Position numbers and translations under genes: made by a program. DNA of 63,957 nucleotides, counting the filler, from Collodictyon triciliatum (taxonomy: Eukaryota), in the NCBI GenBank assembly GCA_043381765.1. It is 15 parts of 15 records of this genome, joined end to end, with 100 filler letters (N's around TTAATTAATTAA, not from the genome) between each part and the next. Parts side by side here need not be neighbours in the genome. Positions count along the whole stretch, not along the records: positions 47,383 to 51,677 come from JBHJMP010006270.1; 14 more parts are not named here. The stretch is one strand, 5' to 3'. The notes below the pieces were generated by a model. The model saw only the letters and a program-made list of their open reading frames with translations. It was not told the origin of the DNA and ran no database searches. Positions 29,980-51,902 of the stretch are shown one piece after another; the first letter of the stretch is position 1; each line of letters opens with the position of its first letter.

Positions 29980-30806
29980 CCTGCAACGAGCCGGCCAGAA
30001 ATAAATGGTTTCCAGAAAAGGATGATCTATATCCATTGCTGGAATGTGCAGCAGAAATACTTTTCCCTTTCGCCTTTGGTTCGCCCAACATTCGCGCATT
30101 CTCGAACCCGATTCCCATTTCCCACACCCGCGTCCAACCGAATAATACCAACCAGTCGATAAAGCACGGCTCTGTTTACTGACGAGCAGAATCAGAGTCA
30201 GAGTCAGAGTCAGAGTCAGAGTCAGAGTCAGAGTCGCAAAGGCCACCAGTTTGCTTGTTTGGTTCGTTGTTTCCTTTTGTATTCGATGGACTCGAGTGTC
30301 TGTGCGTTTTCTGCCGTGGCGAAGCCGAAGCCACTTCAGCCGTGGGAGACTTTGTATCGACCCGCGTGGAGAGCCTTCTGGAGGGCGTCCTTTCCTGTTT
30401 GTCTATTTTCTGTTATTGCACTTTATTTTGTTTTCTTTCTTTCTTTTTCTTACAATTCTTTCTTTCTTTTTTTCTTTCTATTTTCTTTCTATTTTCTTTC
30501 TATTTTCTTTCTATTTTCTTTCTTTTTTCTTTCTTTCTTTTTTTCTTTCTTTTTTTCTTTCTTTTTTTCTTTCTTTTTTTCTTTCTTTTTTCTTTTTTCC
30601 TTTTTTCCTTTTTTCTTTTTTCTTTCTTTTTTCTTTCTTTTTTCTTTCTTTTTTCTTTCTTTTTTCTTTCTTTTTTCTTTCTTTTTTCTTTCTTTTTTCT
30701 TTCTTTNNNNNNNNNNNNNNNNNNNNNNNNNNNNNNNNNNNNNNNNNNNNTTAATTAATTAANNNNNNNNNNNNNNNNNNNNNNNNNNNNNNNNNNNNNN
30801 NNNNNN

Positions 30807-30875
<69 letters not shown>

Positions 30876-30999
30876 CTCTTTTTTTTTTTCCGTGATTGAT
30901 CGAGCTGAGACGGGGATTAGTATTCTGCCATAATCGCACCAAGTTGCCACCCCACTCGGAGCCCGGACAGTAAAACCATAACATAGTTAAATTATCACT

Positions 31000-32490
31000 T
31001 ACTAGATGGGCTACAACCCAGTCTTTCGATTGGTAAACTTGGTGCGCTAGTATCCAAGGTCTCACCACTTTTTTCACAAAGGTCATGTGGTGCTGGAGGC
31101 TGCCAGGAAAGACCCAACAGCCTGTTTTTTTAGAGAAAGGTGTATGCATATTTTGAAGGATTGAAAGAACTTTGTTGAGTATATCATTAGCGCTGTTAAA
31201 GTTCCTTATCAAGAATACAGTTTGTTCGCTTTCTGAGCGATTACATTCTTTACATATGACACATCTATACACCTTTTTTTTTTTATGTTTGCTTTCAATA
31301 TTATATATTCCAGTTCTTTTTCGCAGTTGCAGCACTTCTTAGAGGTTCTAAATTCATCTACACGAACTGTTTCAAAACGTTTGGTTAGTATTTTTTGTAA
31401 TCCTCTTCCGATTGTTGGCTTAGAATGTTTCATCTGAGATTTTCTGCTCCAGTCTCCATACGTCACTACAACATCCTTGCCAAATGTCTTTTCGATTCGG
31501 TCCATAAAGAATTCTTCGCTTCTTTTTGTATTAACATAATGTCTCCATCTCATCTTTCGAAAACTTACGTGTTCATAAAATCTGGATAAATCTATCTGGT
31601 ATATTGATTTCATAGATACATATTTTCGATTTTTTTTTTTCATAAACGACCGTGCATGAATTATGTTTACTCAGTTCTGTCTCTAAATCGATTAAAGATA
31701 CTCTTGATGTCTCAAACTGCTGATTCCCTTCAAAAGTCATGTGATCAAAAGAAATAGCTCTTTGTAAATCTGTTGCCGTGAATATCTTCCTACATGCGAG
31801 TCGATAGCTAGAGCTCGTTCTGTCTACTTTTTTCTTTCCCTTTATTATTTGTTTCAAAGAGCTCGTTCCGCTTTATTATTAGGTTGTTGTACTCACGGGT
31901 CGGTGGCAGCTGGCGCCTTGATCGTCAGTGTGTCTCTGTGCATAACCTGTGTGGTTAAGTGATGTGGTCAAGTGATCTTTTCGCTCTCTGCGTTGGCTGC
32001 GTCGGCCTTCCCGGTTTGCGTACGGTCAGTGAGCATTCCATGGGGCAGGGCTGTGGCGTCGGCATTCTGGTAGACGGTCTCCTCCTTCTCAGGTTCGCTC
32101 TTTCCGATCGCTTGCGTGTTTTTTTTTTTTGTTTTCTTTTCCGGCTTCAGAACTGGTGGGTTGGGAGAAGAAGGAGGGAACGCCAGTGGAGTAGTATTAT
32201 ACTCTGTAGGATGTGTCCTTTTTTTTCTCTCTCAGTGTGTGTATTGTTTCTCTGCAATGAAGATATCTTGTTTGTTTGGTTTTTTTTTTATTGTTCCTCT
32301 CAAGTCTGTCTCTCTCAGTCCGATCACAACATTTATTCACACTATGGAGCCTAAAAAATTATGGAATCAATAACTATATAATATAGAGTTAAAGATTCCA
32401 CAAAAATATATCAAAAGTTTTGGCTTGGATCTGAACGTGTTGTTATAACCACAAATTATTAACAATCAAACAAACCCTGCAAATTAAAAA
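31000..32490 (-). mobile_element. Fanzor-associated element, copy 1 (internally deleted, non-autonomous)
   Basis: 31022-31786 is homologous to 47849-48607. From 31783 the homology switches to 50607 onward, and 31850-32490 matches 25485-26180. Confidence 0.8.
31130..31786 (-). pseudogene. Fanzor1 (TnpB-like RNA-guided endonuclease), C-terminal fragment, frameshifted
   Basis: FRKMRWRHYVNTKRSE..TYGDWSRKSQMKH.KPTIGRGL..VDEFRTSKKCCNC..VYRCVICKEC..RNFNSANDIL, i.e. RuvC-II Glu motif, Zn finger and RuvC-III region; frameshifts fall in poly-A runs. Confidence 0.9.
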
Positions 32491-47282: not shown

Positions 47283-47382
47283 NNNNNNNNNNNNNNNNNN
47301 NNNNNNNNNNNNNNNNNNNNNNNNNNTTAATTAATTAANNNNNNNNNNNNNNNNNNNNNNNNNNNNNNNNNNNNNNNNNNNN

Positions 47383-47447
<65 letters not shown>

Positions 47448-47848
47448 AAACAAATTAAAGGGGAGAATAAAATAAAAGAGAAATTAGATCTAGTTGTACC
47501 TGGGGTTTAAGGGGGAAAAAATGTACAAAAAGAAGGAAAGAAAGAATATGTGGGAATAGTTGTTTTGCTCGTGGCAGTTTGATGGATGGTCAACTTTTTT
47601 ATTCTTGGGTGAGTAGATCGAGAAGGAAAAGGTGCCAAACCTCAAAGACGTGAGAGGGTTTCTCGGTTGTGGTAGCATAACGGGGTTTCAAATAGACATG
47701 CACAACCGCTGATTGGATGGGCAATAAAGACTTATGGCTTTTTCATTTATTTAAAAATCCAGAAATGCAAAACAATTTGTGGAAAATATATTACACACAC
47801 TCGCATAATTTAATGATGTTTTATTTACTACAAGGATGAGTATACCAT

Positions 47849-47955
47849 TCTTTCGATTAGTAAACTGGTTCGCTAGTACCGAGGGTCTCATCACTTCTTT
47901 CACAAAGGCCGTGTAGTGGTGAAAGGTGTCAGGAAAGACCCAACGACCTGTTTTT
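47849..47955 (-). ncRNA. Candidate Fanzor omegaRNA (fRNA) scaffold; homolog at 31022-31130
   Basis: Sequence at and beyond the Fanzor 3' end is conserved between both copies, with nested inverted repeats GGGTCT(47883-88)/AGACCC(47936-41) and CTTTCAC(47897-903)/GTGAAAG(47919-25). The position matches known Fanzor omegaRNAs. Confidence 0.55.
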
Positions 47956-47959
47956 TTTT

Positions 47960-49840
47960 CTTTTAGGAATGGTGTACGCATATTTTGAAGGATTAAAAGA
48001 ACTTTTTTGAGTATATTATTAGCGCTGTTAAAGTCCCTTGTCAAGAATACACTTTGCTTTCTGAGCGATGACATTCTTTACATACGAGGCATCCATACTT
48101 TTTTTTTTTGAATTTCCTTTCAGTGTCATATGTTCCAGTTCTTTTTCGCAGCTACAGCTCATCTTGGAGGTTCTAAAGTCATCTACACTAGCTGCTTCAA
48201 AACGTTTGGATAGTATTTTTCGTAATCCTCTTCCGATTGTTGCCATAAAATGGTTCATCGGAGATTTTCTGCTCCAGCCTCCATACGCAAGTACAGCATC
48301 CTCGCCAAATGTCTTTTTGATTCGGTCCATAAACAACTGTCCACTTCTTATTGCATTAACATACTGTCTCCATCTCATCTTTCGAAAAGTTACTTGTTTA
48401 TAAAATCTGGATAGTTCTATCTGGTATCTTGATTTCATAGATACATATTCTCGAAATTTTTCATAATCGACTGTGCTTGAATTATGTTTACTCAGTTCTG
48501 TCTCTAAATCGATGAAAGATAATCTTGGTGTCTCAAACTGCTGATTCTCTTCAAAGGTTACATAACCAAAAGAAATAGCACTTTGTAAAACTGTTGACAT
48601 ACATATCCCTGAAAAATTGTACTTTTTTTCTCGCGCAAGAGCATTTTGTGATTTTTAAGAGATTTGCTAACATGTCTTCTTTGGTGTGCCGTGTAACGTA
48701 ATTTCTTACTGTCTCATCCACCATGTAAACCAAATTAAACTTGCCTGCGTCCACTCCAACTACTATTTTTTTCCGCTAATGAAGATATCTGCTCTTCTGA
48801 AAGTTCATCTATATAAACATATTCTGGAGTCTTTTAGTTATTTTTGGATTTCGAATTTGAAGTACCTTTCTTCTCAAACAATAATGACACTGCCAACCCG
48901 TCTGTTTGTATCATGTATTTAAAATTGTAGTCTGCTTGATGAAAGACCATCTTCTTCATTTCAAAGGAATCATCCCTTAGTGTCTCTTTGCATCCTGATA
49001 TATTATTCAGGAATGATATTTTTCCCAGTTGATACTAATAGATATATCAAACATGCAGTATCTTGAGTAACATGACATGGTATATTGGCAGTTCTTTTAG
49101 AGGTTGGTTGAAAAAGTGTGGCTCCAATGTCCTCAAAAATGGGATTCATGTAAATCAGACATGGAATGTAATTGTTTGAATTGACTTTGATGTCATATTC
49201 GATACCTTTTACAATATCGCTGGGAATGATACCATGCAAATGCGTTATAGTCCATCTTTATATTGCTATGGTATTTCGAGATTCTTGAAGATGGCTTTTT
49301 TTAACTTTCGTAACTCTGCCCTTTTGATGGCTTCCGCAAGCTTCTTCATCTTTAGGAACTGTTTGATTTATAAAGCGCAGTAACCTCTTTACAAAATGCT
49401 TCTTAATGTTATTATGATAAGCTGTTAACATTTGCTTCAACAAGTACAGTAGTACATGAGACAGTCTAACCAACGGAAAGCGTTCTTTTTAAGACAAAAG
49501 GAATCGAAAATCATTGAGATAAAAATTCATCATATCCTAACTCATATCTGGATGTTTTAAACTTGCGTGTCTATCTTGTGAACCTGCTCCGACTGTCTTC
49601 AAAGCGTACAAAAAAAAAATACATTTCATCGGTTGCTGGGAGTGATTGTGATTTCAATATGTAACATCTCGCAAACAGATAAGTGCCGGTAACCAAATTA
49701 TGACACAATAAAACCGTATCGTTGATTTTTTAATAGTCATCCGCATTCCTTATAATCGACTTTAGAGATGTTTCTACATTTTGATAGTCTGGTTTTACAG
49801 ATTTTAGATTCTCAGACTCAAGACGTTTTCTTTTCTTCAT
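47960..49840 (-). pseudogene. Full-length but decayed Fanzor1 gene (many stops and frameshifts)
   Basis: In order: MKKRKR..YQNVETSLKSIIR; QMLTAYHNNIKKHFVKRLLRFIN; YDIKVNSNNYIPCLIYMN..LFQP..RTANIPCHVTQDT; VVGVDAGKFNLVYMVD (RuvC-I Asp); FRKMRWRQYVN; AYGGWS; VDDFRTSKMSCSC; FLTRDFNSANNIL (RuvC-III Asp). Confidence 0.92.
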
Positions 49841-50559
49841 CTGAAAGTCTTTGTTTTATTTTTTGCTTCAGAAAACTGCCGAGTTTTCAATTTTAATAAA
49901 ACTTTAGTCCATCAAATAAAAAAAAAACTGCACAAAATCAATGAATGTAAAATTAAGCATCTGTCGAGACTCTCAAAATGTGCGCTTTGTGGCAAACAAA
50001 CACACAAATGTTTTTTATAAGTGATTTGAGAGAAAACGCTGAGCCGATTCGGCGAGTTCGAAAGGACGGCCGTACAGCCATGGCGACTAAAAGCCAACAT
50101 ATCGGCCCCAAACAAAATGGTCACCGCCGCAAGTATGGATAGTACGCTTTTTTGAAATGCATGTTTGGTGGCAGGTTTATAGGGCGGGTTCTGTCTGGGC
50201 CAAGGCAACAGCTTGTTTGTAATTTTGGATTTTAGTGACAATATTACATAATGGAAAATAAAATATAAATTAATTTAAAGAATAAAGTGAGATTTAACAT
50301 TTTTAACTTTAGTATATTACTAATAATACTATTATATTATTCAGGTTGTTTCTTGGATTCATCAAAGCTCCTGCTTTCGTCAACCCAGATTTTATTTAAT
50401 GGTTGTCTGTGCAATAAATTGCTATACATGGGTGCACTTTCGTTGTATAATGAGTGTTGTGCCTGGAAGGGACAAAACCAAGTTCGTCACAACCTTTGCA
50501 ATGAATTTTATCCATTTACAGGCTGAATGAGACCGAAGGAAAAAAAAGGAAAAAAGAAA

Positions 50560-51320
50560 CAGATGAACGAATCAGAGCAACCAATACTGAGTATCATATT
50601 CATACTTATCTTGCTACCCGTGAGTCGATAGCCAGAGCTTGAGGTCTTTTTAAACCCTCTCGTCAGTAGTTTCATGTTCTCTTCGATTCCTTGCGCGAAC
50701 AGCTGGGCCATTGAGCCTTTCATCTCTTTGCTGGAATATCTCCCATAGCCGTCTTTGTCTATCGTAAACCCGCATCTTTGCTAGTATGCCTCTTCTTTCT
50801 TCAGGGCGTTTGCTGCGTCGGCCTTCTCGGTTAGCCCCTTTAGATCGCTTGCTTGATTTTCCGGATTTGGATTTACAGATTTGGAATTTAGGTGTATTTG
50901 GATTTGGACTTTGGGCGTCGGCTGGGCTCGAACATCCTGATATAGAAACGAACAAACAAACAAACAAACAAAACAAACAAACAAACAAACAAACAAACAA
51001 ACAAACAAACAAACAAACAAACAAACAAACCCTCTGAATTTATGGTATGGAAAACCACCAAAGAATAATACGCCTCCAACTTCGGCGAAATGTACTTGTT
51101 GCGAGGAAATAACTTCGGTAAACGCTCGTTGGGACATTTGCCAACTCCAATCACGTTTTTTTTCTCTGAGCTCAGATTCAGTAATGATCATTGTCGCGGA
51201 CACAGAAAACATCGGACACGTCGACTTGCCGAAAGGACAGTGCGATCGAGTTCCCTCTTTTATTCAATTGTTTACTATGCTCAGCCCTTATTAGATTACC
51301 AGAAGTCTTGTCTGAAGCCC
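50560..51320 (-). pseudogene. Unidentified, intron-containing, degraded partner gene upstream of Fanzor (same orientation)
   Basis: AG acceptors near 51320 and 50938, and the peptide PENQASDLKGLTEKADAANALKKEEAY*..EMKGSMAQLFAQGIEENMKLL. The xADAAN motif recurs in copies 1 and 3. Confidence 0.45.
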
Positions 51321-51902
51321 CTAACAAAAAAACAAACAAAACTATGATGTGTGGTATTAATATCACATGATAATAATTAAAAAAATATTATTATGAGAAA
51401 GAGAGAAGAAAAAAATTAGTGACACTTCTCGTTTTTTATTTCTTTTGGATTCGATCCATAGTTTTGTTGATCATAGATGTTTGTGACACACTCATTCTTG
51501 AATAAAAAAATAATAATCTGTTATCCGCACATATGTATATACAATACCCTCAGCAAACTGATCTTTCTATTATATCCCATTTCCTCATTTATTTGTCAAA
51601 ACAACTTCTTTACTTTTTTTTTAAAAAAAAATTAGTCCTGGAACAAACAAACAAACACACACACACACACACACACANNNNNNNNNNNNNNNNNNNNNNN
51701 NNNNNNNNNNNNNNNNNNNNNTTAATTAATTAANNNNNNNNNNNNNNNNNNNNNNNNNNNNNNNNNNNNNNNNNNNNGTTTCTCAAAGTCCATTGTCAGG
51801 AGATCTGCGTAGTTGCCGCGGGCTAGGCGGCCGGTTGGGGCTGCGTAGATGCCCGACTGGATGTTGGGACTGGCTGCAACCTGCGTTGGTGGAGGGTTTG
51901 TG

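Follow-up and report, generated by a model that had tools for sequence, protein, structure and literature searches.

The window analysed here is a 63,957-base stretch of the Collodictyon triciliatum genome assembly that carries two copies of the 3' end of a Fanzor1 nuclease element, and our subject is the tail that both copies share beyond the nuclease gene, which an earlier reading of this DNA (the original prediction) had proposed as a conserved, base-pairing omegaRNA scaffold with a guide boundary at its end. The window is made of about 15 short contigs (~4.3 kb) chained via N44-TTAATTAATTAA-N44 spacers (e.g. at 4305-4404, 30707-30806 and 47283-47382), and because these spacers join separate contigs, adjacency across a spacer carries no meaning. 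Most of the contigs have a microsatellite at their end. Copy 1 lies on the contig at 47383-51677 and copy 2 on a different contig at 30807-37297, with 462 nt and 211 nt of readable 3' flank, respectively. Direct reading rests on these two copies: by blastn, the sole self-match of the window pairs 47845-48607 with 31018-31786 at 84.8% identity over 776 columns, both on the minus strand, and a profile search of the window with nhmmer found no third copy.

The gene upstream of the tail is, as judged by its sequence, a Fanzor1 (TnpB-like) nuclease gene, in line with the Fanzor gene originally predicted there. A phmmer search with the 208-aa open reading frame (ORF) of copy 1 (48028-48654, minus strand) returned 1481 proteins at E<=1e-3, many of them 590-790 aa long, and the homologue P0002 (634 aa) matches the SpuFz1 structure 8GKH over residues 14-607 with an E-value of 9e-37. 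The window ORF itself matches the Parasitella Fanzor1 (PpFz1, 9CF0) at E 2.3e-10 and 8GKH at E 5e-4. Pfam on the window ORFs gave only the Cas12f1-like TNB zinc ribbon, at an E-value of 0.0056 that is below the cutoff, and the same Cas12f1-like_TNB domain is found at or above the cutoff in two relatives (P0018: 28.8 bits vs 26.3). Homologue searches in 'longer' mode for the 208-aa ORF, and in 'near' mode for the C-terminal frame of copy 2, returned nothing.

Both copies of the gene are broken. Copy 1 (47967-49840, minus strand) is collinear by tblastn with P0002 residues 2-615, starting from an ATG at 49840, and runs through three frames with at least 7 in-frame stops; its RuvC-III motif RDFNSANNI is present, with frameshifts separating RuvC-III from the zinc finger. 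At 48052 some of the other copies of the family have 4 nt more than copy 1, whose frameshift there is therefore a derived deletion. Copy 2 retains the 3' third of the gene (31134-31786, minus strand; RuvC-II, zinc finger and the RuvC-III motif RNFNSANDI), frameshifted against copy 1 by indels of 4, 3, 4, 6 and 1 nt. Here the zinc finger and RuvC-III share a frame, but RNFNSAN replaces RDFNSAN (D to N). Neither copy combines an intact reading frame with the catalytic D/E/D residues. Because both nuclease genes are broken, a working ribonucleoprotein (RNP) from these two loci is excluded. Ratios of nonsynonymous to synonymous substitution (dN/dS) between the copies are 1.25 (48461-48104), 0.82 (48607-48466) and 1.51 (48047-47966), with ORF substitutions spread evenly over codon positions (18/17/13), and from their common ancestor onward the two copies have evolved by neutral drift. 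It follows that a shared tail means merely a location inside the repeat unit.

Upstream of the copy 1 ATG lies the 5' portion of the element (49841-50860, minus strand), which in related organisms is multi-copy to ~50.84 kb. Two islands within it, 50860-50806 and 50639-50607, are common to copy 2, where the 5' islands (31783-32123, minus strand) match copy 1 50860-50607 collinearly and run straight into the 3' third of the gene. The islands match over 30 nt at 90% (E 4e-6) and 33 nt at 85% (E 5e-5), the ~170 nt between them are unalignable though of similar length, and the two may be left-end or promoter motifs. Between GATA(A/T)GTATG microhomologies ~2.0 kb are missing from copy 2, which is an internal-deletion derivative of the sort typical of a mobile element whose ends matter. 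We also considered copy 2 as a spliced or retro-copied form, given a poly-A run downstream and the GT..CAG-like ends of the deletion, and rejected this because a microhomology deletion fits the junction better and many contigs end in simple repeats. The poly-A run itself (>70 nt at 30807-30893, minus strand) lies ~125 nt downstream of copy 2 and reaches the contig end, and is probably a simple repeat at which the assembly broke off.

The shared tail begins at the last codon with homology to relatives, on the same strand as the nuclease ORF, and in copy 1 it extends from there (..TPF, 47967) to ..AATCGAAAGAATGG (47845-47966, minus strand). Its twin in copy 2 (31018-31133, minus strand) is ~83% identical, with a 1-nt indel at ACC(A)AGTTT. 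In the MAFFT alignment the core reads TTGGGTCTTTCCTG .. CCTTTGTGAAA .. TGAGACC .. TACTAGCG .. GTTTAC. AATCGAAAGA, and identity in 30-column steps stays at 0.83/0.73/0.83/0.80 before it falls, beyond 47842/31016 and after ...AATCGAAAGA(A/C)TGG, to 0.53/0.50/0.37/0.37/0.30. The original prediction had described a tail of at least ~110 nt shared by both copies, with similarity dropping after the core, and both descriptions are borne out, the first by the blastn pair and by the core as it was quoted, and the second by a fall from 0.80 to ~0.5 at 47845/31018. It had also placed the tail beyond the coding end, which is correct in that the tail lies past the last protein homology, but no stop codon marks that end: the RuvC-III frame remains open through the tail, copy 1 reaching a stop only at 47751 and copy 2 running open to the contig end. 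The proposed comparison of flanks likewise yields an identity drop across the two copies, but no target-site duplication (TSD) can be defined.

That the tail closes a repeat unit is also seen in other assemblies. Contigs were placed on 47383-51677 at a likeness of at least 80% from two sets from related organisms (X1 and X6) and from freshwater metagenomes (X2 and X3); the X1 and X6 sets, only guessed to be RNA, consist of contigs, so their depth carries no information on expression. Among the listed sequencing runs that share words with the stretch, none is recorded as RNA, and the largest word share was 0.15. From X1 474 contigs were mapped and from X6 467, most of them less than 95% alike. 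Depth (X1/X6) is 3-6/0 over 47383-47814, 46/22 in 47815-47958, 149/52 in 47959-48102 and ~100-480 up to 50550, beyond which it declines to 37/76 and 33/16 in the next two bins and is 0 from 50839. The gene and its tail are thus part of an old, high-copy Fanzor1 element of ~3 kb in the related organisms, with its 3' limit in the 144-nt bin that holds the tail, and the right end shows a sharp end of conservation on two copies and on depth ending in the same bin, with a marginal likeness of ~40 nt beyond it. A repeat search gave no terminal repeat pair, and neither terminal inverted repeats (TIR) nor a TSD could be defined. Such observations could be accommodated if the 776 nt belonged to some larger repeated or segmentally duplicated stretch, with 47845 as an arbitrary breakpoint made by a deletion or a DNA insertion, since the window holds two copies only, copy 2 has been rearranged by internal deletion, and each contig offers little flank. 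We nevertheless hold this to be highly improbable, as hundreds of contigs from two related organisms end their pile-up in that one bin, and the spacing between RuvC-III and this end is the one that a Fanzor1 right end should have.

Within the tail, copy 1 contains nested helices (47883-47941, minus strand) in which an outer stem, GGGTCT (47941-47936) with AGACCC (47888-47883), surrounds an inner 7-bp stem, CTTTCAC (47925-47919) with GTGAAAG (47903-47897), after which comes an 8-nt purine-rich linker. Copy 2 keeps the outer stem as GGGTCT (31115-31110) with AGACCT (31062-31057), including one G-U pair, and the 7-bp inner stem is found only in the 47.9-kb copy. These agree with the outer stem of both copies and the inner stem of one copy that had been noticed before. 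A weak candidate for a terminal stem-loop, AC(U/C)A-AUCGAAAGA(A/C)-UGG (47845-47864, minus strand), comes from the minimum free energy (MFE) structure of copy 1 and a reading of the alignment; its U/C difference keeps the pairing with G, and its end coincides with the end of similarity. RNAalifold on the two copies gave 27 consensus pairs with 5 one-sided compatible changes and 1 compensatory change, such that 6/6 variable paired columns in the consensus still pair, one of them via a double change. No fold is seen for the tail read on the plus strand (z +0.30 and -0.39). Rfam returned two chance-level hits on the tail at E<=10 and none at the gathering score in the whole window, and no tRNAs were found in the window.

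Taken together, we consider it probable, with moderate confidence, that the tail at 47845-47966/31018-31133 is the relic of an omegaRNA scaffold in a multi-copy Fanzor1 element that has decayed, and that scaffold and guide met at 47845/31018. The analysis supports the position of the tail at the end of the element that would code for the omegaRNA, and its RNA role is that of a candidate. With two dead nuclease genes and neutral drift between the copies, the tail is most likely a remnant of the region that coded for the scaffold, rather than a working gene. In active elements, the 3' terminal segment of this ~3-kb Fanzor1 family would have been transcribed either together with the 3' end of the nuclease gene or from it; the transcribed segment would form the omegaRNA scaffold, with the RNA continuing into flanking DNA as the guide, and the RNP would cut sites matching that flank. 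We infer that the ancestral tail encoded such an RNA and that its scaffold would measure ~80-100 nt from the nested helices near 47941, the guide starting past a junction at 47845/47844 in copy 1 and 31018/31017 in copy 2.

A picture of a functional tail in this clade comes from Fanzor1 relatives in other data. A profile scan of metagenome contigs, which used an 8-protein alignment (a 22-protein alignment being too diverse), identified 80 Fanzor1 loci (L001-L080) with 39-55% identity in the matched segment, at least one of them, as a scan of viral contigs showed, on a 254-kb metagenome-assembled genome of a giant virus. The viral scan gave 5 loci (L081-L085), none closer than 46%. Closer relatives were not found: a single-protein scan of metagenomes gave 86 pattern matches with 0 confirmed, and two DNA patterns from the window had 0 matches in viral contigs. 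In 64/80 loci the gene is followed by a 3' tail of 130-190 nt (e.g. L001:3072-3200 and L019:3057-3201) that has near-invariant words (TTGATTTTAC, and the terminal GGCGTTT[TG]AAATG..GGTGTAA[AT]A) and a razor-sharp end, after which the DNA is unrelated. Depending on the subfamily, the stop codon falls before, inside or after this tail RNA, and the protein tails after RPxxF are variable, at 3-40 aa.

In a covariation set of 29 representatives at less than 92% identity, 9/10 RNAalifold pairs in the outer helix and the ~7-bp inner hairpin of the relatives show compensatory changes. Paired cells amount to 88.3% vs 72.3% in shuffled alignments (0/500) and double-change cells to 52 vs 11.6 (0/500), while the covariation score is 0.407 vs 0.149 shuffled and at most 0.143 in slid controls. 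In a subset of 15 sequences there is also support for another hairpin and for a long-range TTTAC/GTAAA pairing. RNAalifold on the 3' domain alone gave no pairs, and the pre-terminal hairpin, 44.9% paired as aligned, was hence dropped from the full-tail model R2. Fold z-scores of the relatives' tails are -5.14, -2.88 and -1.84, and no Rfam match was found in the 4 loci scanned. This looks like a well-defined omegaRNA family with its natural guides readable alongside.

By eye, the tail of the window resembles that of the relatives in L001-L085 in several respects. Their outer helix begins 86-100 nt after RuvC-III (a hand estimate) compared to 97 nt here, it contains a ~7-bp hairpin as in copy 1, and after this come, in order, an 8-nt purine-rich linker, AGACC.TCG, an optional small hairpin and a GTTTAC-like word. 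In the relatives the RNA and the end of the ORF overlap irrespective of stop-codon position, as they would in the window tail with its open frame. In contrast, the window tail lacks the near-invariant words found on the 3' side in the relatives. One conceivable explanation, which we regard as decidedly doubtful, is that the eukaryotic family kept only the nested-helix 5' module and swapped the relatives' 3' module (TTGATTTTAC ... GGTGTAAAA) for the terminal hairpin ending at 47845; a 5'-module-only omegaRNA would, if true, amount to a scaffold swap or shortening between the viral and the cellular lineage of one nuclease clade.

Several results weigh against reading the tail as a scaffold relic. 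Model R1, built from the 5' domain of the relatives only, gave 32 hits at E<=10 on the whole window with 0 on the tails, and when restricted to ~230 nt around each tail it aligned the expected part at 2.7-3.4 bits and E 0.5-0.8. R2 had no hit on the tails at E<=10. The nhmmer profiles of the relatives reached E 22 when run on the window and 0.11 when run on just the two tails, the 3'-domain profile had no match on the tails, and a hidden Markov model of the two-copy tail found nothing in 80 relative loci (best E 2.2). On these sequence comparisons, R1 and R2 do not recognise the window tail, and its homology to the relatives' RNA is unsupported. The tail itself is without sign of selection and at least as diverged as the dead ORF, with 19/113 substitutions vs 48/358, 19/142 and 8/82 in the ORF blocks. 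Its folding is ordinary (z -1.09 and -1.41 for the 120- and 117-nt tails, -0.46 and -1.74 for the 76-nt cores), the copies disagree in their MFE structures, only 3/7 pairs of the inner stem survive in the 31.1-kb copy, and the covariation score is reached by 249/500 shuffles, two sequences giving no power. The best inverted match between the tail and the 5' region scored 16 in each copy, whereas shuffles averaged 17.3-17.5, with the 5' end of the element only roughly placed. The tail bin is shallower than the element body, which may reflect edge effects or a more variable tail, and the open frame through the tail in both copies leaves room for a coding C-terminus. The original prediction fares accordingly. 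Its reading of a scaffold with a guide boundary keeps the support of position and of the end in depth, but not of constraint, folding, covariation or the relatives' models. 'Conserved' in the sense of constraint is not supported, given dN/dS values of 0.8-1.5 and the 19/113 substitutions of the tail vs 75/582 in the ORF, and the evidence from structure is weak, with fold z-scores of -0.46 to -1.74 and the shuffle result for covariation.

The position of the junction also depends on how the flanks are read. The copy 1 flank at 47789-47844 (minus strand) is either guide-side DNA or a badly diverged extension of the element, and has a weak likeness to its counterpart in copy 2 (30970-31017, minus strand). 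If it is an extension, the element and its scaffold would run for ~40-55 nt more, to ~47804-47789 and 30983-30970, the guide would follow ...TTATG or ...GTGTAATA, and the drop in identity would be a short hypervariable patch. We regard this as unlikely, though several observations are consistent with it. The flanks match over 32 columns (21 identities, one 4-nt gap) at the same offset past the drop, which 31/1000 shuffles reach over the first 60 nt, and identity is 0.53/0.50 in the first 60 columns compared to 0.30-0.37 later. In copy 1 the words ATTAAAT..GTGTAATA resemble, by eye, the relatives' terminal TTTAAAT..GGTGTAA[AT]A, a motif found ~200-265 nt after RuvC-III in the relatives and ~250 nt after it in copy 1, and a flank contig from X1 ends at 47771. 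However, the match over the full flanks (145 vs 137 nt) is reached by 304/1000 shuffles and is not significant, the extension is unscored by the relatives' 3'-domain profile and by R2, it has no fold when the tail is extended to ~47785 (z -0.56, +0.66, -0.48 and +0.38), and the copy 2 counterpart (GGTTTTAC) fails the motif. The weak trace that had been described for ~40-50 nt past the drop therefore exists, but is marginal given these two shuffle counts.

Very unlikely, in our view, is that the tail was a C-terminal coding extension and/or a 3' untranslated region that played no part in guiding, in a family whose guide RNA was encoded elsewhere or did not exist. The open RuvC-III frame in both copies would suit such an origin, as would the variable 3-40-aa tails of the relatives after RPxxF, a weak tblastn extension into the tail (KKTGRWVFP vs RRTEGLTITP) and the lack of support for an RNA from folding or models. 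Set against these, the reading frame changes within the tail at the 1-nt indel that separates the copies, substitutions there have no codon pattern (8/4/5 by position), and ~40 open codons are unremarkable. Moreover, a covarying RNA occupies the same region in the relatives wherever their stop falls, and all characterised Fanzor1 systems have the omegaRNA at this end. On the doubtful reading of a 5'-module-only omegaRNA, translation of the ancestral protein may have continued across the entire scaffold and on into flanking DNA, as no ORF stop precedes the element end.

If the tail is indeed a scaffold relic, the window adds one more eukaryotic Fanzor1 family with a compact ~80-100-nt guide RNA, and from the numerous diverged copies that related organisms carry, a structure tested by covariation could be obtained. 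As they stand, the two dead loci contribute little other than annotation. The more useful by-product is the tail RNA of the relatives, a ready model for right ends and natural guides in this clade. Elsewhere in the window, the contig at 42988-47282 (plus strand) is filled by a 1464-aa open frame flanked by (SQ)n-coding microsatellites. A 151-nt contig from a lake-water metagenome (set X2) is identical to the window at 47800-47949, spanning the junction of tail and flank, and therefore the same or a very close organism occurs in fresh water.

The published Fanzor systems offer several points of comparison. The SpuFz1 element Spu-1 of Spizellomyces punctatus is a multi-copy element of 2-3 kb with a single Fanzor1 ORF and a 14-15-nt guide taken from the flank (Saito 2023, PMC10432273); its omegaRNA spans 30-nt inverted repeats, and deletion "ghost" elements keep the ends (PMC10432273). 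Similar to Spu-1, the window has a conserved segment bounded by the last protein homology and the end of the element (~75-80 nt there and ~80-115 nt here), followed by unrelated flank, and a deletion derivative that keeps its ends (the ghosts there, copy 2 here). It differs in that no inverted repeats were detected here, with the 5' end roughly placed, and in that intact genes and a sequenced RNA are described for SpuFz1, whereas both genes here are dead and known from DNA alone; the proteins are only distantly related (E 5e-4 for the window ORF vs 8GKH). For ApmFNuc, the concept of an fRNA and its prediction by a change-point in 3' conservation past the ORF, abutting the right end, are the same as applied here (Jiang 2023, PMC10530073), although ApmFNuc is a Fanzor2 in an IS607 element with TnpA and ~200 nt of conserved non-coding sequence (PMC10530073) and ours is a solo Fanzor1 without a transposase. 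In the three solved Fz1 RNPs, the first stem-loop (SL1) is a conserved protein-binding element of 7 bp, with the remainder of the scaffold varying freely (Xu 2024, PMC11423790), and the omegaRNA of GtFz1 overlaps 17 codons (Saito 2023, PMC10432273). The likeness to PpFz1 and GtFz1 is thus one of description, in that copy 1 has a 7-bp inner stem, which is absent from copy 2, where these systems have their 7-bp first stem-loop, and in that the omegaRNA may overlap C-terminal codons, as over the 17 aa of GtFz1. The window tail agrees with published Fanzor1 omegaRNAs in its position, its size and the 7-bp stem of copy 1.

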